Below, in pieces: positions 4,549 to 24,582 of a DNA stretch of 47,560 nucleotides. A program made the translations under genes and the position numbers. The notes beneath the pieces were generated by a model. That model was not told the DNA's origin, did not search any database, and saw only the letters and a list, made by a program, of their open reading frames with translations. Source of the DNA: a virus (taxonomy: Duplodnaviria; Heunggongvirae; Uroviricota; Caudoviricetes); IMG/VR virus record IMGVR_UViG_2630968533_000001; one strand, written 5' to 3'. Position 1 is the first letter of the stretch. Every line of letters begins with the position of its first letter.

Positions 4549-4797
4549 TTACTTCTGGTTGTATTGAGCCTTGAGTAACTCAAAAGATTTTGTCAGCACT
4601 TCTTTCAATGACATATCCATTGAGCTGGCGAACGTTTTGTACTCGCGTTTAAATTCAGGGTCGACGTTAAACGCCATTTGTGCCCCACCTGATTTGGTTC
4701 TGGTTGGCGTTTCAGTCGGGTCGAAAACCTGCGGTTGTTCGATCGATGGCGGTACGCCTTTGCTGTTCTTCTTTGGTGGTTTTGATGGTCCGGCCAT
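4549..4797 (-). CDS. ParG-like small ribbon-helix-helix partition/centromere-binding protein (82 aa)
   Basis: ORF track; lies directly downstream of parA in the same orientation; basic flexible N-terminus and C-terminal RHH-like segment MAFNVDPEFKREYKTFASSMDMSLKEVL; SD AGAGGGGA upstream. Confidence 0.5.
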   Translation of the reverse strand: MAGPSKPPKKNSKGVPPSIEQPQVFDPTETPTRTKSGGAQMAFNVDPEFKREYKTFASSMDMSLKEVLTKSFELLKAQYNQK

Positions 4798-4840: not shown

Positions 4841-5509
4841 TTACGCGGCAGTAGTCAGAGCCTCAAGCTGGTTGATAATCCCCTGAATAACGTCGTCTGC
4901 CTTTTTGCGTGGCGCAACGTATGAGCATTCAATGAGGCTTAAGCCCTTATCCTGAGCTTTGCTCAGAGCTGGCTTGTGGGGAATGTACTTATCGACAACA
5001 AAGTATGGCGTATTAGCCAGGTACTCTTGGGCTTCAATGTAGTCGGCTTCGTTTTCAGCCGCGCCTGAGAACACCATGCAAATTTTCTTGATTGGCACAC
5101 CCTTTTTAACGATGCCGTGAGCTGTGTTAACGGTGGTTTCCAGGTCATCGGTAGAGAATCTGGTTGGCAAAATAACCATATCCAGAAATTCAGAGAGCTT
5201 CGGTACTGATTCAGATGCGTAGGCACCGCCATCGACGATAACCAGGTCGTATACTTCTGATTCGATGATTTTCTGGACTTGTGATGGCGTGCCGCACGGC
5301 TGCGCCGCGATTGCAGGTTCGATATTGTTGGCCATTCTGCGTTGTACCCAACGCGTTACCGTTCCGTTAAGCACATCCATATCGATCAGGCATACATTCC
5401 AGCCGGCCTTTGCATAAGCAACTGCTAAAGCACGGGCAATTGTTGATTTGGTTACGCCGCCTTTTCCGTTGAAAATACCTACAGAGATAGTCATTTGTCG
5501 AGACTCCAT
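4841..5509 (-). CDS. parA: ParA/ParF-type partition ATPase
   Basis: ORF track; deviant Walker A GKGGVTKST near the N-terminus; about 220 aa, typical of small type Ib ParA proteins. Confidence 0.85.
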   Translation of the reverse strand: MESRQMTISVGIFNGKGGVTKSTIARALAVAYAKAGWNVCLIDMDVLNGTVTRWVQRRMANNIEPAIAAQPCGTPSQVQKIIESEVYDLVIVDGGAYASESVPKLSEFLDMVILPTRFSTDDLETTVNTAHGIVKKGVPIKKICMVFSGAAENEADYIEAQEYLANTPYFVVDKYIPHKPALSKAQDKGLSLIECSYVAPRKKADDVIQGIINQLEALTTAA

Positions 5510-15331: not shown

Positions 15332-15407
15332 GGCCCCTTAGCTCAGTGGTTAGAGCAGGCGACTCATAATCGCACGGTCATCGGTTCAAATCCGGTAGGG
15401 GCCACCA
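15332..15407 (+). tRNA. tRNA with CAT anticodon (tRNA-Met or lysidine-type tRNA-Ile2-like)
   Basis: Cloverleaf read by hand: acceptor GGCCCCT/AGGGGCC, D-arm GCTC/GAGC, anticodon loop CTCATAA (CAT at 15365-15367), T-arm ATCGG-TTCAAAT-CCGGT, encoded CCA; G1-C72 paired so not an initiator; 5' half resembles E. coli ileX as recalled. Confidence 0.85.
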
Positions 15408-15714: not shown

Positions 15715-16302
15715 ATGGAGGAAATTGCATTGTTTAATCTGATTTATGCAGATCCCCCCTGGGAATACAAAGACAAGTGTAAGGATGGGAATCGTGGAGC
15801 TGGTTTTAAGTATCCAACGATGAAAGCTGAGGAGATTGCTCGTATTCCTGTCTGGCAGCTTGCTAATCCTGAATCGTGTTTGTTGGCCATGTGGTGGGTT
15901 CCGACTCAGCCAGAAGAAGCGTTGCTGGTGGTGAAAGCATGGGGATTCAGGCTTATGACCATGAAGGGCTTCACATGGAACAAATGTGGTAGCCGACAAC
16001 CAGATAAGCTGGTGATGGGGATGGGGCATATGACTCGTGCAAACAGTGAAGATTGCTTGTTTGCGGTAAAAGGCAAATTGCCGACCCGCCTTGATGCGGG
16101 GATCATTCAGTCGTTTACATCGCTTCGTCTGGAGCATTCTCGGAAGCCTGATGTGGTTCGTGACAAGCTGGTAAGGCTGTTAGGTGATGTTCCTCGTATT
16201 GAGCTGTTTGCTCGCGGTGATTTACCTGATGGTTGGCATGGCTGGGGCAACCAGTGCAATGGAGGTATCCAGTTGCATGATGCTCTCTGGCAAGTGGCAT
16301 AG
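15715..16302 (+). CDS. MT-A70 family adenine DNA methyltransferase
   Basis: ORF track; catalytic DPPW motif in LIYADPPWEYK near the N-terminus. Confidence 0.8.
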   Translation: MEEIALFNLIYADPPWEYKDKCKDGNRGAGFKYPTMKAEEIARIPVWQLANPESCLLAMWWVPTQPEEALLVVKAWGFRLMTMKGFTWNKCGSRQPDKLVMGMGHMTRANSEDCLFAVKGKLPTRLDAGIIQSFTSLRLEHSRKPDVVRDKLVRLLGDVPRIELFARGDLPDGWHGWGNQCNGGIQLHDALWQVA

Positions 16303-17446: not shown

Positions 17447-17595
17447 ATGGTGTTGGCATTTTTCTGATGGTTGTGGCCGTGTGGTTTTGTTTCTCGCTGG
17501 TGTTTATTGCTGGTGTCCTGTGGCGCATCTTAGTGGCGCAGACAGCTTTTCGGCGTAAGCGAGAGCAAATGCACCTTGATTTATATCGAAAGTAA
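17443..17595 (+). CDS. Small membrane protein (50 aa), not in the ORF track
   Basis: Hand translation: ATG 17443 overlapping the upstream TGA, MNGVGIFLMVVAVWFCFSLVFIAGVLWRILVAQTAFRRKREQMHLDLYRK, stop 17593-17595, followed by a terminator. Confidence 0.3.
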   Translation: MNGVGIFLMVVAVWFCFSLVFIAGVLWRILVAQTAFRRKREQMHLDLYRK

Positions 17596-17602
17596 CTCTT
17601 AC

Positions 17603-17634
17603 AGCCTCGCGGTGTCGCGGGGCTTTTTATTTTC
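17603..17634 (+). terminator. Rho-independent terminator
   Basis: Stem AGCCTCGCG/CGCGGGGCT with GTGT loop, then TTTTTATTTTC. Confidence 0.5.
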
Positions 17635-17644
17635 AGGTGATGTT

Positions 17645-18055
17645 ATGGAAAAGAAAGAAGATAAACCGATTGCCATTGGTGCAGAGTCTGTTCCGTTTAA
17701 GTTTGAATTATCCCAACTGGTAACAATGCGTATCAGTGACGAATGGGGAGAAGTTCAAGCCCGTGCTCAGTATGCAAATGGCGAAAACCAGTATCTGATT
17801 CACTATCAGGCGGCTGATGGCCGTGCTACCACAGAGTGGTTCGGTGAGTCGATGCTGATTGCGATGGAGGATAAACGTCATCCTGGCTGCCCTGTTTTTG
17901 CCTGTATTGATTTGCCAGAAGGCGCGGTACTTGAAGACGACGAAGAAGAATGCTCATCTGATGGCGAACTTGTCATTACCGGAATCGTTGATGGTAAGCC
18001 GGAATACTCTCGTATTGAGGTAAATAACGGCTGCCTCCGTTTGATCCCTGCGTAA
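17645..18055 (+). CDS. Hypothetical acidic protein (136 aa)
   Basis: ORF 17576-18055; in-frame ATG 17645 downstream of the terminator. Confidence 0.5.
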   Translation: MEKKEDKPIAIGAESVPFKFELSQLVTMRISDEWGEVQARAQYANGENQYLIHYQAADGRATTEWFGESMLIAMEDKRHPGCPVFACIDLPEGAVLEDDEEECSSDGELVITGIVDGKPEYSRIEVNNGCLRLIPA

Positions 18056-18289: not shown

Positions 18290-18913
18290 ATGACAAAACA
18301 ACTTAATGTGGTTTCTTTACCACTTTCTGTGTTGATTGGTTATGAAAAGAACGCTCGCACACACTCCGTGGAGCAGGTAGATCAGATTGTTGCCAGCATA
18401 CAGGAGTACGGATGGACTAATCCGATCCTGATAGACGAGAACAACGTTGTAATTGCTGGTCATGGTCGAATTGCTGCGGCCACTCAGTTGGGGATGGATG
18501 ATGTTCCCTGCATTGTTCTGGCTGGGCTAACGGAGAATCAGAAGAAGGCATATCGTCTGGCCGACAACCGTATTCCGCTGAATGCTGGTTGGGATGAAGA
18601 GCTGTTAAGCGCGGAGCTTGCAGATCTTGCGGCCGATGATTTTGCTCTGGACTCAATTGGTTTTACTCAGCGCGAACTGGATAACTTATTGAGTGCGGCG
18701 GTCTACGATGACACAGAGGGTATGGATATCCCATTTGAGAAGGATGAGGCCAAATCAGGCGTAAAAGTTCAGTACCTGTCATTTGGAGGTCATAAAATCC
18801 CGGCAACGGATGAGGAAGCGGATCGTTTTGACTGCGCGGTGTCTCGTTATGTTGATGATAATGGCAGCTATATCGGATTTGTATCCGCATTGCTGGCTGG
18901 GGAGGTGTGCTAA
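18290..18913 (+). CDS. ParB/Srx-like N-terminal domain protein
   Basis: ORF track; ParB-like nuclease-domain pattern with AGHGRIAAA; paralogue of the gene at 21579. Confidence 0.7.
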   Translation: MTKQLNVVSLPLSVLIGYEKNARTHSVEQVDQIVASIQEYGWTNPILIDENNVVIAGHGRIAAATQLGMDDVPCIVLAGLTENQKKAYRLADNRIPLNAGWDEELLSAELADLAADDFALDSIGFTQRELDNLLSAAVYDDTEGMDIPFEKDEAKSGVKVQYLSFGGHKIPATDEEADRFDCAVSRYVDDNGSYIGFVSALLAGEVC

Positions 18914-20286
18914 TGCTTCACCTCAATTACGACATAACGCACCTACGCGGCGCGGAATATAACCCGCGTTTTATCGGTGAAGATGATCTTGCGAGGCTGG
19001 CGGAAAGCGTCAGGGAGCTGGGGCTTGTGAAGCCATTGATAGTGCGCGGCGATTTGCTGGTGGCGGGACACCAAAGGACGAAGGCGCTACGTAAGTTGGG
19101 AATAACGCGTGCTGCGGTGTATGTGTTGCCCTGTGAAACGACGGTATACGACGAAGTACGGTTTAACCAACTGCATAACGGAACGGATTTTGATAGCGGA
19201 GATGAGCGTTGCAGGGTGTCCGGTCTGGAAGATAAGCATGGTTTTGTTCAGGTATCGGCAAGCCAGATCTCAGGCAATATGCGCGCGAAAATGGCATATG
19301 TTCGAAAGAACATAGCGGAACTGGTTATCAAGTATGGTCCGTGGGGTGGTTGTGTTGCGACTCAGTCTGGCGAGGTTATTCACTGTGCTCAGTATGCATT
19401 AGCAGCGAAGATGACGCGTACACCGCTAACGGTGTTTGTGATCCCTGATGTTGAGAAGGAAAAATACCAAAGTTATCTGAATAAAACTTATGGTGTATTT
19501 GAGTATTCTCATCTGGAGAAAACAACATACATCCAGACGTATGCGCAGCTTATGCGGTTGCGTAATGGTGGCAGCCTGAAATCAAACCTGTATGAGTCGT
19601 TGATCCTCCCGATCATTGCCAAGACGCCAAGAGGAATTGATTTTGGTTCGGGGCAGGGAGACTACGCGCGAATGCTCAGGGCAAAGGGATATAACCTGCA
19701 TGATCTCGAGCTTTTCCGCCGTAAGGGCGCTGGAAACACTCTGGATAGGACCGCAACAAACCGGATGATTGATACGCTGGTGGACGACTTAAAAACGCGA
19801 GGGCGTTACGACTACGTGATTTGCGATAGCGTTTTGAACTCGGTCGATAGTGTCGAGGCTGAATGGTCCGTTCTGACGGTTCTGAAAGGCTTGTGTAAAG
19901 CTGGTGGGTCAATATTCTTTTCTGGCCGTAGCCGTGGAGAGCTGGAAACAGTCCTGAAGCAAACACAAGCTGCGAGTTCCAAAAGCCGGCTTTATTTTAT
20001 TGATCATAACGGTTTTACCGCGTTGTACCGGAAGGGGCACTGGTTTTACCAGAAGTTTCACTCTGATGAGGAAGTGAAGCAGTTGTGTCGTGTACATGGT
20101 TTCAGGATTAAGCGGTCAATATTCAACTGTAAGAGCTGGTATTTGCACGTCATTAACGATGATTCCCTTAGTTGGGCGAGTCTGGAGAAAGCTGTTCGTT
20201 TTGAGTTTGAGTTGCCGTTGCCTGGTGGTTCAACAATCGGACGATCTGATGATGTGCTGGCGGCTTTCCGGCCGTTGATTAAGTAG
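18907..20286 (+). CDS. ParB-like N-terminal domain fused to a class I SAM-dependent methyltransferase-like domain (459 aa)
   Basis: ORF track; N-terminal LIVRGDLLVAGHQRTKALRKLG ParB-like; C-terminal GIDFGSGQGDYARML (motif I-like) and RYDYVICDSVLN; no DPPY/NPPY DNA-methylase motif seen. Confidence 0.6.
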   Translation: MLMLHLNYDITHLRGAEYNPRFIGEDDLARLAESVRELGLVKPLIVRGDLLVAGHQRTKALRKLGITRAAVYVLPCETTVYDEVRFNQLHNGTDFDSGDERCRVSGLEDKHGFVQVSASQISGNMRAKMAYVRKNIAELVIKYGPWGGCVATQSGEVIHCAQYALAAKMTRTPLTVFVIPDVEKEKYQSYLNKTYGVFEYSHLEKTTYIQTYAQLMRLRNGGSLKSNLYESLILPIIAKTPRGIDFGSGQGDYARMLRAKGYNLHDLELFRRKGAGNTLDRTATNRMIDTLVDDLKTRGRYDYVICDSVLNSVDSVEAEWSVLTVLKGLCKAGGSIFFSGRSRGELETVLKQTQAASSKSRLYFIDHNGFTALYRKGHWFYQKFHSDEEVKQLCRVHGFRIKRSIFNCKSWYLHVINDDSLSWASLEKAVRFEFELPLPGGSTIGRSDDVLAAFRPLIK

Positions 20287-20302
20287 TGTGTAGGAGGCGC
20301 TG

Positions 20303-21022
20303 GTGGCTGACAGAATTGAGATAAAGATGGATTTTTCTTCTCAGGATATTCAACGACAACTCCAGCGCCTTGAAGAACGCGAATTGCCGTTCGCAATGGC
20401 GCTTGCGGCAACCAGAACGGCAAAGGCTTCTCAGGCTGCGATTAAGAATGAAATTAATCGGGTATTTGACAGGCCCACGCCGTGGATTCAGAACTCTACT
20501 TACGTTTTGGCCGCAAAGAAGGGTGATCCTACAGCCATTGTGTATGCTCGTGAATGGGGAGGAACGCCAGCACCTGTAACGTTGACTCCGCAAATCGAAG
20601 GTGGCCAACGACAGTACAAACGCTCAGAAGGGGCGCTAAGGGCTGGTGGATATTTGCCTAACGGCTGGCAGCTTGCTCCTGGTCCCGGCGCAAAGCTGGA
20701 CAAATACGGGAATATTTCGCGGGGGCAATTACAGCAGGTCTTATCTGGCCTAAGAGTTCAGCGAGATGCGCATCAAAATCGCCGTCAGGGCAAGCCTACG
20801 GAGTTTTTTGTTGTTCGACCTGGTACAAGTAACCCGCTTCAACCAGGCGTCTGGCAGCGCGTTGGGCGGCGTCCTACGTTGATCCTTACGTTTATCCAGC
20901 AACCTAACTATTCGCAGCGTCTTGATTGGCATGGCGTGGCGCTGCGTGCTGGTGAGGATGCGTTTGCTGATGAAGTCACAAAGGCTATTGATGACATTCT
21001 TTCTAAGACCTTCTCTCGTTAA
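20303..21022 (+). CDS. Hypothetical protein (239 aa)
   Basis: ORF track; no domain recognised. Confidence 0.5.
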   Translation: MADRIEIKMDFSSQDIQRQLQRLEERELPFAMALAATRTAKASQAAIKNEINRVFDRPTPWIQNSTYVLAAKKGDPTAIVYAREWGGTPAPVTLTPQIEGGQRQYKRSEGALRAGGYLPNGWQLAPGPGAKLDKYGNISRGQLQQVLSGLRVQRDAHQNRRQGKPTEFFVVRPGTSNPLQPGVWQRVGRRPTLILTFIQQPNYSQRLDWHGVALRAGEDAFADEVTKAIDDILSKTFSR

Positions 21023-21199
21023 TCATCGTGTGGTTGATGGTGTTGTTATGCAGAGTGTATTCACTGTGTTCTGTAGCGTCGCTCGCTGGCTGTCTGTGGG
21101 GGAGCACGAGCATCGTTTCATCGTCCGGCAGAATTGGGTCCTTCTGGCCAAAAGCGTTGGATGCGGGTCATTCGAACCCCGATATTCGGCTAGCTAAAC

Positions 21200-21578
21200 G
21201 TGAAAAAAGTTAGGTTAAAAGTTGCGGTAAAAGAAATTTACTCATCTCATTGAAAAATATCGGGAAAACGTGATTTTTTCTGTATTTGTGCTGGTAAAAA
21301 GAAAGTGGAAAATTTTCTTTTAGATCATCAAGATACGCGCAGATCTTTAACCAATGTGATGTTGTTCTGATAAAAATCGTTATAAATCATGCAAATACAT
21401 CCAATCTTTTAACCAAAACACCATCGCAAGATCCTTTTTACTTATAAAAACTTAATAAAATCAGATAATTATGCTGGTTTGTGTGATTTTTCATGAGTAA
21501 AAAGATCGTCATTTTTCTCTTTTAGTATCAATAAGTTAAACAGTTTTCTTTAACCTGTTGTGTTATGGCGGTTAAAAA
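21200..21578. promoter_or_regulatory. AT-rich non-coding region with an imperfect ~75-bp direct repeat and GATC-containing boxes
   Basis: Matching blocks (GTAAAAAG, TTTTAG, TTTAACC) in 21290-21370 and 21493-21570 offset by about 203 bp; 379 bp without an ORF. Confidence 0.35.
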
Positions 21579-22169
21579 ATGGCTCTAAAAATCGAATATT
21601 TACCAGTCGGTAAGTTGCTCAGATATGCCAAAAATTCACGGACTCATTCAGATGAGCAAGTTGAACAGTTGGTGAACAGTATCCGTGAGTTCGGTTTCAC
21701 TAATCCTGTGCTGATCGATGAAAAGAATGAACTGATTGCGGGGCATGGGCGGCTTGCAGCAGCCGAAATTCTGGAAATGGATAAAGTTCCGGCGATTCGG
21801 TTGAGTAACCTTTCTGAAAAACAGAAGAAGGCTTACAGGATTGCAGATAACAAGCTGGCCTTAAATGCTGGCTGGGATATGCAGCTTCTGGCCGAAGAAG
21901 TCAAAGAGTTAATGGATGATGATTTTGATATTGATCTGCTTGGGTTTAATGATGCAGAGCTTGACGAAATGTTAAGCGATGAACAGCCGCAGGAAGAAGA
22001 CGATAATTCTTCCCCTGTTGTTCAAATTAAGTACCTGGCTATTGATAAAGAACGTATTCCCGCGACGGATATGGAAATTGCATTGTTGCTGGATGTTTAT
22101 CGTCAGTACCACGACGCGCATGAAACGCATGAGGGATTTGTTCAGTATCTTGCTAATGGTTGCAAGTAA
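21579..22169 (+). CDS. ParB/Srx-like N-terminal domain protein
   Basis: ORF track; paralogous to 18290-18913 (shared LIAGHGRLAAA and QKKAYRIADN motifs). Confidence 0.7.
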   Translation: MALKIEYLPVGKLLRYAKNSRTHSDEQVEQLVNSIREFGFTNPVLIDEKNELIAGHGRLAAAEILEMDKVPAIRLSNLSEKQKKAYRIADNKLALNAGWDMQLLAEEVKELMDDDFDIDLLGFNDAELDEMLSDEQPQEEDDNSSPVVQIKYLAIDKERIPATDMEIALLLDVYRQYHDAHETHEGFVQYLANGCK

Positions 22170-22720
22170 TGGCCATCGTCAGTAAGTCAGAGTTTGCCCG
22201 CCGGAAAGGTATTTCTCCGGCAATGGTTACGAAGCTCTGTCGTTCCGGTCGCATTCCAGTGCTGAAAAGCGGCAAGCTGGATTTTGATAAAGCCAGTGCG
22301 GCTTATGAAGCGAGCCGACAGGTTGGTCGTGAGGTATCTGCTGAAAATGGAAAAAGAGGGCATGGGATATCTTCGGAACAACCAGAGTTACCCGCTGATG
22401 ATGCCGGATTAGCTGGTGGTACTTCCGGTGTTGCGGTGCAATTCAACAAGGCTAAGACCGCAGAAAAAATTTATCAGGCAAAGCTGAAACGCCTTGAATT
22501 TGAAGAAAAGGAAGGCTCTCTCATCGCTAAAGATGCGGTCAGGGATGATGCATTTCTGGCAGCTAATGAATTGCGTAGCCGCTTATTTAGTATTGCTCCA
22601 AGAGCAGCTCCCCGTTGTGAAGGCAAAACAGCCAGGGAGATCGAGCGCATTATTGAAGACGAGATTAATTTTGCGCTTCAGGCGCTCCAGGAATCCCGAT
22701 TTATTAAGCAGGAAGAATAA
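22169..22720 (+). CDS. terS: Terminase small subunit
   Basis: ORF track lists a TTG start at 22160; ATG 22169 overlaps the upstream stop (TAATG); N-terminal HTH-like segment; immediately upstream of terL. Confidence 0.6.
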   Translation: MAIVSKSEFARRKGISPAMVTKLCRSGRIPVLKSGKLDFDKASAAYEASRQVGREVSAENGKRGHGISSEQPELPADDAGLAGGTSGVAVQFNKAKTAEKIYQAKLKRLEFEEKEGSLIAKDAVRDDAFLAANELRSRLFSIAPRAAPRCEGKTAREIERIIEDEINFALQALQESRFIKQEE

Positions 22721-22725
22721 ACCTC

Positions 22726-24582
22726 ATGGGCGAAACAGTATGGAGCACCGCTTTTTTCCGTGCGCTTCGCCCTAAATCACGGCTAACTGTTTCCGAATGG
22801 GCTGATAAGTATCGTCATGTAGCGCCGGGAACGTCTCCAGAGCCAGGGCCGTGGCGTACAAGCCGAGTGCCATATTTGCGTGAACCAATGGATGTTATTG
22901 GTGACGCTGATACAGAAACAGTAGTGATGCAATGTAGCTCGCAAATTGGTAAATCCGAATTACAGCTAAATGTTATGGGTTACTTTGCAGATCAGGAGCC
23001 ATCTCCTCAGTTGATGATTTATCCAACGGTAGAGGCGGCTGAGGCTTTTTCAAAAGAGCGTATTGATCCGACGTTCAAATATTCCCCTGGTTTGAAACAC
23101 AAGCTGCATGAAGGGAAAGAGGGGCGCGGTGCAGCCAAAAAGTCCAGCACGACTATACGTATGAAGCATTACGCTGGTGGATATATAGCACTTGTTGGTG
23201 CTAATTCCCCAGCAGGTCTTGCATCCAGGCCAATTCGAATACTGTTAGCTGATGAGATTGATCGTTACGGTGTGACGCAGGAGGGCGACCCACTAAAACT
23301 AGGTATTCAGCGTACTACCAACTTTCATAATCGTAAGAAAGTTTTTGTTTCTACTCCTGTTTTGGAGGAAACAAGCAAAATCCACAAGTGGTTTAAGCTC
23401 TCCGATCAGCGTTACTACCATGTTCCTTGCCCATGTTGTGGCACCATGCAGGTGATGAAATGGTCGCAAGTCAGATGGGATAAGAGCGATTCAGGTGAGG
23501 CGTTACCGGAAACGGCCAGATATGAGTGCTGTGAGTGCGGCGGGATTATGCGCGGATCTGGTAAACCAGACGTTGATTGGTTGGCGAAGGGGGTATGGAT
23601 AGCTGAACATACTGGAGTTAAAGGTATTGTTGGTTTTCATATTAACAGTCTTTACTCCCCGTGGGTTGCATTGTCAGAGCTGGTTGAAGAATTTACGGAA
23701 GCAACCAGAAACCGCGATAAAAATGGATTAATGGAGTTTATTAACCTTAAGCTGGGTGAGCCATGGAAAGAGGATGCTAAAGACGATATCGATCCTGAAT
23801 ACTTGTTGCAACGCAGAATAAGGTTTGAAGAGTTTTTACCAGATGATGTTTTATTGTTAAGTGCTGGTGTTGACGTACAGGACACGTATTTAGTTTGTGA
23901 ATTGGTCGGTTGGGGAAAAGGTAAGGAGTCATGGGGGATAGAATATAAAATATTCCCAGGTGATCCCGCACAAGATGTTGTCTGGAAACAACTTGATGAA
24001 TACTTACTCCGTAGCTGGTCATTCCGTGACGGTCGAAAATTACAGATTTCTTCCGTTTGTATTGACTCTGGTGGGCATTTTACGACAGAGGTATATCGCT
24101 TTACTAAGCCGAGAGAATCAAGGCGAATATACTCTATCAGGGGGCGTGGTGGGGTAGGTTTACCATTTATAGGAAAGCCAAGTAATAATAACCGTGTGGG
24201 TGCTATGTTGTTTAATTTGGGGGTTGATGATGGTAAAGGGACCATCATGGCAAGAATTAAACTACATGATCCTGGTCCTGGTTATATGCATTTCCCATTA
24301 GATTCTGACAGAGGATATGATACCGAATACTTTAAAGGATTATTATCAGAGAAAAAAATATTTGAATATAAAAATGGGCAGACAAAAGAAAAGTGGGTGA
24401 AAGTCTACGAGCGTAACGAGCCTCTTGATTGCCGTAACTATGCAACTGCCGCGATGGAAATTCTGAACCCTAATTTTAACTGGCTTGCCGAACAGGAAAT
24501 GCGAGGTAATGTGTATGTGCAGAACTCGTCAGGTATACGTAGAAGACGCCGTAGAGTTATAAGTAAAGGCGTAACCATATAG
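22726..24582 (+). CDS. terL: Terminase large subunit (lambda GpA family)
   Basis: ORF track; 618 aa with LLADEIDRY-type ATPase motif and lambda gpA-like organisation as recalled. Confidence 0.9.
   Translation: MGETVWSTAFFRALRPKSRLTVSEWADKYRHVAPGTSPEPGPWRTSRVPYLREPMDVIGDADTETVVMQCSSQIGKSELQLNVMGYFADQEPSPQLMIYPTVEAAEAFSKERIDPTFKYSPGLKHKLHEGKEGRGAAKKSSTTIRMKHYAGGYIALVGANSPAGLASRPIRILLADEIDRYGVTQEGDPLKLGIQRTTNFHNRKKVFVSTPVLEETSKIHKWFKLSDQRYYHVPCPCCGTMQVMKWSQVRWDKSDSGEALPETARYECCECGGIMRGSGKPDVDWLAKGVWIAEHTGVKGIVGFHINSLYSPWVALSELVEEFTEATRNRDKNGLMEFINLKLGEPWKEDAKDDIDPEYLLQRRIRFEEFLPDDVLLLSAGVDVQDTYLVCELVGWGKGKESWGIEYKIFPGDPAQDVVWKQLDEYLLRSWSFRDGRKLQISSVCIDSGGHFTTEVYRFTKPRESRRIYSIRGRGGVGLPFIGKPSNNNRVGAMLFNLGVDDGKGTIMARIKLHDPGPGYMHFPLDSDRGYDTEYFKGLLSEKKIFEYKNGQTKEKWVKVYERNEPLDCRNYATAAMEILNPNFNWLAEQEMRGNVYVQNSSGIRRRRRRVISKGVTI

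Follow-up and report, generated by a model that had tools for sequence, protein, structure and literature searches.

A candidate ParB-assisted DNA methyltransferase system beside the packaging genes of an Escherichia coli phage-plasmid

Introduction

The subject of this work is a cluster of ParB/Srx-domain genes carried by a 47,560-nt stretch of Caudoviricetes DNA (IMG/VR record IMGVR_UViG_2630968533_000001; the whole stretch is hereafter the window), in which two short ParB-like proteins, A and D, accompany protein B, a fusion of a ParB/Srx domain to a class I S-adenosylmethionine (SAM) methyltransferase, next to genes for lysis and DNA packaging. The window is identical to a 47,558-bp circular plasmid from an Escherichia coli stool isolate; it encodes RepA, ParA, a toxin-antitoxin pair, lysis genes, a lambda gpA-type terminase and a contractile tail, and deposited Escherichia and Yersinia phage genomes contain near-identical DNA. 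Given this plasmid identity and gene content, together with the near-identical phage records, the element is a circular phage-plasmid of E. coli, 47.5 kb in length. The region is found in 71 of 5,426 complete E. coli genomes, where 77 of the 78 places it occupies are plasmids, and a literature search on this type of phage-plasmid and on the Yersinia phages returned nothing specific.

The locus comprises four open reading frames (ORFs), all on the plus strand and all where an initial annotation, made from the sequence alone, had placed them; A, B and D run in the same direction as the lysis and packaging genes.

18290-18913, plus strand: gene A, short stand-alone ParB/Srx protein, 207 aa (ParB_N, PHROG 620)
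18913-20286, plus strand: gene B, fusion of ParB/Srx and class I SAM methyltransferase, 457 aa (ParB_N, Methyltransf_23, PHROG 5475)
20303-21022, plus strand: gene C, 239 aa (PHROG 1924)
21579-22169, plus strand: gene D, second short ParB/Srx protein, 196 aa, paralogue of A (ParB_N, PHROG 620)

The initial annotation had grouped these genes with a separate MT-A70 methylase and proposed for them a function in DNA modification, anti-restriction or packaging. Here we describe the domain anatomy of the three ParB/Srx proteins, their conserved association and the enzyme partners of their lineage, and we weigh the reading that A, B and D form a single ParB-assisted DNA methyltransferase system.

Results

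Two short ParB paralogues with a common C-terminal domain

Both A and D match ParB_N in Pfam (E 4e-5 and 4e-8) and PHROG 620 (E 4e-74 and 5e-75), and they are 48% identical to each other across 201 residues (E 5e-62), which bears out their initial description as paralogous ParB-like proteins. An alignment of 16 short ParBs gives the two the same layout, consisting of a nucleotide-binding domain whose Box II is GHGR, a strongly acidic helical segment, a variable linker, likewise acidic, and a C-terminal domain of ~48 residues (residues ~159-205 of A, nt ~18764-18904; residues 148-195 of D, nt 22020-22163). The TAA stop codon of A has one base in common with the ATG of B (TAATG), as does the TAA of D with the ATG of the gene for the terminase small subunit (TerS). 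A and D also match PHROG 498 (E 2e-50 and 4e-52) and, at positions 7-158, the PADLOC model MTase_II PDLC03229 (E 3e-37 and 2e-40), the match of A covering positions 14-158. Only the N-terminal module of this type II methylase model is matched by A, B and D, and the NCBIfam matches of all three proteins, to ParB or Noc models, are sub-threshold.

Database names such as 'chromosome (plasmid) partitioning protein', together with an element that replicates as a plasmid and has a ParA, would suit a role of A and/or D as the centromere-binding partition ParB of the plasmid prophage. We regard that role as highly improbable, since Pfam detects no helix-turn-helix (HTH) DNA-binding domain in A or D, where ParB_N is the sole match, the ParA-interaction motif (L/F/I)G(K/R)G(L/F/I) is absent from A, B and D, the TIGR00180 scores of the three (A 29.6, D 40.1, B 16.4) all lie below the cutoff of 58.45, and ParA is encoded 13 kb away, on the minus strand (4841-5494), with an 82-aa partner of its own. 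A and D, moreover, have GHGR as their Box II, and B has GHQR, in place of GERR(xR), and the same proteins are found in integrated prophages. The actual partition system of the element appears to be the small ParA with the 82-aa protein encoded downstream of it (4549-4797, minus strand), which is unrelated to A, B and D.

The net charge of A is -20 and that of D -19, in ~200 residues each, and is concentrated in the helical segment. This charge, and the location of the two genes at opposite ends of the inferred linear virion genome described below, could fit anti-restriction DNA mimics or defence decoys acting independently of B. Such a function is very unlikely for proteins that conserve the nucleotide-binding motifs GHGR, ADN and GWD as the enzyme-fused versions do, that have in common with ParB-N6_N4 methylase fusions the same acidic segment, and that are strictly paired with B and carry a B-specific C-terminal domain.

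Domain anatomy and family of protein B

Residues 9-70 of B match ParB_N (PF02195; E 3e-5, 24.3 bits, just under the gathering cutoff of 26.3), residues 233-400 match Methyltransf_23 (PF13489; 32.6 bits against a cutoff of 27), and the protein aligns end to end with PHROG 5475, labelled 'unknown function' (E 2e-265). The ORF stands as annotated, but in place of the initial 459 aa its length is probably 457 aa, with a start at ATG 18913, as in RefSeq and the family alignment, and not at GTG 18907.

An AlphaFold2 model computed from 42 sequences is confident (pLDDT, the predicted value of the local distance difference test, 93.4; predicted template modelling score, pTM, 0.89). In this model the secondary-structure pattern of residues 1-90 recurs at residues 110-189, and when residues 99-232 are modelled separately the first ~90 are again confident (block-mean pLDDT at least 89). 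From the repeated pattern and the confident separate model, the order of B is a ParB/Srx domain, a degenerate ParB/Srx domain, a conserved cap and a class I methyltransferase.

18913-19206, plus strand: B residues 1-98, ParB/Srx nucleotide-binding domain (Pfam, alignment)
19207-19512, plus strand: B residues 99-200, second ParB/Srx-fold domain, degenerate
19513-20286, plus strand: B residues 201-457, cap and class I SAM methyltransferase domain (Pfam, alignment, structure model)

The second ParB/Srx-fold domain (residues ~99-200 in the model) is cryptic to sequence methods; it lacks the GxxR arginine and has invariant G142 and Y161. The initial count of three ParB/Srx-like genes is correct, but with this additional domain in B the region encodes four ParB/Srx domains.

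Across 104 sequences with identities down to 32%, the N-terminal domain keeps NPR 17-19, AGHQR 51-55 and FNQxHN 84-89 invariant, and the methyltransferase domain DFGxG 243-247, E266, N309/S310, R339, D364 and G375/W377/Q380/H383, with D305 a key residue alongside N309/S310. The cap conserves Y193, G194, Y198, Q208, AQ211-212, R215, S224 and Y227, and residues 201-457 as a whole have a net charge of +8. B has the Rossmann-like fold, the (D/E)xGxG motif I and the acidic residue ending strand 2 that characterize class I SAM methyltransferases. No (D/N/S)PP(Y/F/W/H) motif occurs in B or among 42 aligned homologues, no cysteine is conserved in the 42-sequence alignment, and Pfam finds no PF01555 in B. 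The architecture first proposed, a ParB-like N-terminus joined to a class I methyltransferase without DPPY/NPPY, is thereby upheld, and the database comparison that the initial annotation had named as able to refute it does not identify B as an ordinary ParB-N6/N4 methylase.

B is a typical member of a large family. At least 777 protein clusters are similar to it at E 1e-3 or better; among the matches listed, full-length homologues have ~455-480 residues, and for most homologues both ParB_N and Methyltransf_23 are precomputed. Matches in genomes come from Gamma- and Alphaproteobacteria, Bacillota, Chloroflexota, Planctomycetota, Myxococcota, Chlorobiota, Bacteroidota and Kiritimatiellae. Tandem paralogues of the B methyltransferase, two or three side by side, occur in Chloroflexales genomes (locus L187, 2381-5292; locus L190, 1036-6061).

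Conserved pairing of a short ParB with B

Where the DNA upstream of the B homologue is long enough to judge, the ORF directly before it encodes a short ParB, often with an overlap between the two, in 89 of 92 cases (60 of 61 viral and 29 of 31 genome loci, the latter from Proteobacteria, Bacillota, Chloroflexota, Planctomycetota, Bacteroidota and others). By profile search, the A/D-type C-terminal domain turns up at 72 of the 77 viral loci anchored on B and at 28 of the 31 genome loci. In 80 loci anchored instead on the nearest relatives of the nucleotide-binding domain of D, its occurrence is confined to D orthologues and a single ParB that adjoins a B homologue. The ~48-residue domain is a signature of B-linked ParBs and, because it is limited to them, A, B and D probably constitute one system. 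Since D carries this B-specific domain, it would be a second cognate partner of B and not of the MT-A70 enzyme, so the tie that had been drawn between the MT-A70 gene and the ParB genes is not supported. Two short ParB ORFs are found in 13 B-anchored viral loci belonging to about five groups, and a D gene in the TerS-proximal position is particular to the present lineage.

A divergent clade (~33% identity; locus L076, 3815-12332, and loci L075-L083) encodes, in order, a Methyltransf_25 protein, two short ParBs, a B homologue, an HTH protein, an SNF2 helicase and a Terminase_3 large subunit, so that its module includes an additional methyltransferase and a DNA translocase.

Enzyme partners of the A/D ParB lineage

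The lineage to which A and D belong was sampled through the 79 closest viral relatives of their module. All 33 long relatives are ParB-N6_N4 DNA methylase fusions in which PF01555 is present. Downstream of 33 short relatives, the adjacent ORF encodes a Mom-family protein (9), a TET-associated DNA glycosyltransferase (TAGT; 9), an N6_N4 methylase (3), a C5 enzyme (1), a Dam D12 enzyme (1), a B homologue (1) or a GNAT protein (2), the rest being other proteins. E. coli phage vB_EcoS-673R7 has such a pair in the same position, its lysis genes being followed by ParB, TAGT, TerS and TerL, the terminase large subunit. As judged from these sequences, the A/D ParB lineage is a dedicated companion of phage DNA base-modifying enzymes, with B filling the enzyme slot, and it is this association that chiefly argues for B acting on DNA. 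The DNA-modification function first proposed thus gains comparative support.

In IMG/VR loci L094-L161 (for instance L095, 1125-2838, and L102, 3489-5205), a short ParB gene of this lineage is repeatedly followed by one for a Mom-family protein (9 of 33) or a TAGT enzyme (9 of 33), with no obvious TET gene accompanying the TAGTs. This arrangement suggests that Mom-family enzymes and TAGT glycosyltransferases also have ParB-dependent variants.

The structures closest to B are generic class I methyltransferases of the small-molecule or tRNA type, which raises the alternative that B methylates something other than DNA: an RNA (tRNA or another), a protein, or a nucleotide or signalling molecule. 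The ParB/Srx domain of B would in that case be an ATP-binding or kinase-like module, as in Srx, SerK or SbnI, and the methylated product would help to protect or repair RNA or act in anti-defence. We consider a non-DNA substrate unlikely: generic class I fold matches say little on substrate, the ParB lineage of its partners is found elsewhere almost exclusively with DNA-modifying enzymes, and the terminase-side position of B is that of the ParB-DNA methylase fusions. DNA as the substrate of B remains the reading we favour.

Position at the probable cohesive end and the terminase genes

Downstream of gene C, the module adjoins the following features of the packaging region.

21166-21177, no strand: inferred 12-nt cohesive end (cos), GGTCATTCGAAC (phage record ends)
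21286-21450, plus strand: three 15-nt direct repeats, TTGTNCTGNTAAAAA-like (candidate terminase/cosB-type sites)
22169-22720, plus strand: terminase small subunit, TerS (PHROG 57)
22726-24582, plus strand: terminase large subunit, TerL, lambda gpA-type

Three Yersinia phage records have their break points within the AT-rich gap of 556 bp that separates C from D and has a G+C fraction (GC) of 0.37. The record of vB_YpM_39 starts at 21166, and that of vB_YpM_44 ends at 21177 and restarts at 21178; from these offset break points, the 12 nt GGTCATTCGAAC at 21166-21177 are the probable cos, which fits a lambda gpA-type TerL. A-B-C would then form the right end, and D-TerS-TerL the left end, of the linear virion genome, so that the module spans the inferred cos with A-B-C on one side and D on the other, just upstream of the terminase genes. 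The three TTGTNCTGNTAAAAA-like repeats, 74-76 bp apart between cos and gene D, could be TerS-binding sites akin to the R sites of lambda cosB. NCBIfam has no match for TerS.

In other phages the large terminase gene follows B at ~0.3-3.6 kb and belongs to at least four Pfam groups (gpA, TerL_ATPase/nuclease, Terminase_6 and Terminase_3); the position next to the terminase genes is conserved, and the terminase type is not. This recurrence directly upstream of TerS and TerL, the placement of A-B-C and D on either side of the inferred cos and the overlap of the D stop codon with the TerS start would also be expected if A, B and D were packaging accessories, the ParB-like proteins acting at cos or on the terminase, for instance to mark or organize the packaging start site, and the methyltransferase being regulatory or acting on a packaging or virion protein. 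Yet ordinary ParB-DNA methylase fusions and ParB-TAGT pairs use the same position, recognition of a specific packaging site is unlikely for a module that is compatible with unrelated terminases, of cos and pac phages alike, D is TerS-proximal in this lineage only, and A and D are strongly acidic and lack a DNA-binding domain. We judge the packaging role improbable; for the packaging-accessory function initially suggested, gene position and the D/TerS overlap are the only support.

GC falls at cos within 18290-22720, from 0.48-0.52 in A, B and C to 0.37 in the gap and 0.43 in D, a drop that suggests that the two ParB paralogues lie on mosaic blocks of different origin.

Gene C and other neighbouring genes

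Gene C is the last gene before cos. As initially described, it encodes a 239-aa protein between the ParB genes (20303-21022). The protein has no Pfam match; NCBIfam likewise returned none and the PDB no meaningful sequence match, and its sole assignment is to PHROG 1924 (E 7e-97). We considered it as a member of the module and rejected it, its occurrence being limited to close phage-plasmid relatives, and its inclusion in the group by the initial annotation is accordingly dropped. PHROG 1924 carries the label 'minor tail protein', which looks doubtful. Gene C stands far from the tail genes, and homologues in Pseudomonas phages F10, JBD68 and MD8 are found no more than ~150 bp from the right end of their genome records, a location that agrees with that of gene C just before cos.

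Outside the module, one further methyltransferase gene is listed for context.

15715-16302, plus strand: stand-alone MT-A70 DNA methyltransferase (PF05063, DPPW)

The identity of this separate methylase was correctly recognized at the outset (PF05063 E 1e-22, DPPW at residue 13). ParB-MT-A70 fusions are known (PHROG 21315), and D was examined as a partner of the enzyme in trans; this was rejected, D carrying the B-specific C-terminal domain. We found no link of the A/B/D module to plasmid partition or to the MT-A70 methylase.

Between the lysis genes and the MT-A70 gene lies a tRNA gene with anticodon CAT (15332-15407), called tRNA-Met by ARAGORN and tRNA-Ile by RefSeq, which may be a lysidine-dependent tRNA-Ile2. 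The ORF immediately 5' of A (17576-18055) is conserved, matching PHROG 1935 of unknown function (E 2e-65), with no Pfam or NCBIfam match. For sigma-70 promoters and terminators, a scan of 17.9-22.3 kb gave a lower number of sites than shuffled sequence did, and yielded no operon boundaries.

Discussion

Comparison with known ParB systems

The CTP-dependent clamps ParB (of ParABS), Noc and KorB have the same N-terminal domain fold as A, B and D, but the latter lack the HTH, the ParA-binding motif and an adjacent parA, and carry GHxR, not GERR. DpdB, of the DpdA/DpdB 7-deazaguanine DNA modification, is a ParB/Srx-fold ATPase and a necessary helper of a DNA base-modifying enzyme; that enzyme, however, is a transglycosylase working in a bacterial restriction-modification context, and only the fold is in common with the module described here. 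Closer in sequence are the ParB-N6_N4 fusions (PF02195 and PF01555; PHROG 498; PDLC03229), whose ParB module shares as much as 58% identity with the first ~140 residues of A and D, and one of which, in Verrucomicrobia phage P8625, is encoded just upstream of a gpA-type terminase gene, as is the present module. In contrast to these fusions, the ParB here stands alone as a polypeptide and ends in a C-terminal domain of its own, and B is not a PF01555 protein, lacks a DPPY-type motif and itself carries two ParB/Srx domains.

5mYOX-ParB systems are likewise units of two genes, one for a DNA-modifying enzyme and, beside it, one for a short ParB composed of nucleotide-binding domain, variable linker and C-terminal domain without a DNA-binding domain. 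Clade E 5mYOX thymine dioxygenases are reported to require a short ParB activator for activity on DNA; both the nucleotide-binding and the C-terminal domain of this ParB are needed, it has no DNA-binding domain, pairing is cognate-specific and terminase genes are often near (PMC13229309; bioRxiv 10.1101/2025.08.14.668559). B differs in being a SAM methyltransferase, not an iron/2-oxoglutarate (Fe/2OG) dioxygenase, and in holding ParB domains itself.

The Pfam architecture of B (PF02195 with PF13489) is that of the ParB-CTPase-Methyltransf_23 fusions, catalogued in 2025 as phage- and prophage-enriched and termed predicted DNA methyltransferases (PMC12704722, PNAS 2025). Both this fusion and a general link between ParB and DNA modification are therefore already published, and the architecture is less novel than the initial annotation implied. 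That survey gives no substrate or function for the Methyltransf_23 fusions, and a keyword search of its text and supplements returned no mention of a second ParB/Srx domain, an obligate short ParB partner or a terminase-proximal position (PMC12704722). Keyword searches of related papers likewise returned no second ParB/Srx domain, family-specific ParB partner, recurrent two-partner layout or cos arrangement; a paper on carboxymethylcytosine notes that ParB-domain proteins adjoin DNA-modifying enzymes and that their function is unknown. The survey further reports that a tested 'Mtase23' protein with the Box II heptad GHQRTKA bound ATP and that R-to-A mutants lost binding (PMC12704722). Residues 52-58 of B are the identical heptad, and B probably binds ATP on this motif-level evidence.

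Proposed function

What the data show is how the domains are arranged, that the pairing is conserved and that the lineage swaps its enzyme partners. On this basis we favour, with moderate confidence, the reading that A, B and D are one ParB-assisted DNA methyltransferase system, probably ATP-binding, made alongside the packaging genes; that DNA is the substrate, that ATP has a role, that A and D activate B and when the genes are expressed is what we infer. The enzyme would be B, a SAM-dependent class I methyltransferase with an NTP-binding ParB/Srx domain (probably for ATP) and a degenerate one. The acidic short ParBs A and D would probably contact B through their C-terminal and nucleotide-binding domains, and switch B on or load it onto DNA, by analogy with the short phage ParBs that serve thymine dioxygenases. 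Replicated phage DNA would be marked before or during packaging, for protection or self-recognition; a marking role around packaging seems likely because the genes share the orientation of those for lysis and packaging and flank cos. Anti-restriction would be a plausible consequence of such a modification. The mark is probably not N6-methyladenine (m6A), N4-methylcytosine (m4C) or 5-methylcytosine (m5C), given that the B sequence lacks an amino-methylase motif and a catalytic cysteine.

Several points weigh against this proposal. The case for B acting on DNA is one of association, B lacks every catalytic motif known for DNA base methylases, and the RefSeq annotation of the plasmid contains no enzyme that would make a hypermodified base as its substrate. 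Membership of the tested 'Mtase23' protein in the B family is deduced from motifs only, and late expression is an assumption from gene order, the promoter and terminator scans being uninformative. A nucleoside triphosphate (NTP)-gated mechanism is likewise uncertain, because 5mYOX ParB mutants in the NTP site are reported to remain active in vivo (PMC13229309; bioRxiv 10.1101/2025.08.14.668559).

A bolder form of the proposal, which we put forward only tentatively, is that B is the founding member of a class of DNA methyltransferases that is widespread in temperate phages of many phyla, is gated by ATP and one or two cognate short ParBs, and makes a mark other than m6A, m4C or m5C, either on a ring nitrogen (N7-G, N1-A or N3-C) or on the backbone.

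Conclusions

A general role for ParB-like proteins in assisting phage DNA-modifying enzymes is emerging, for which, to our knowledge, the dioxygenase case is the only one tested. The B family is a large one, spanning at least eight phyla, with a strictly conserved partner and an enzyme domain that falls outside the known DNA methylase classes. If DNA is what B modifies, the means that phages deploy against restriction and other defences would grow by a new enzyme class and possibly by a new base modification, and this would affect the reading of methylome data from E. coli clinical isolates that carry the plasmid. If B does not modify DNA, the family would be a clear exception to the rule that links ParB proteins to DNA modification.

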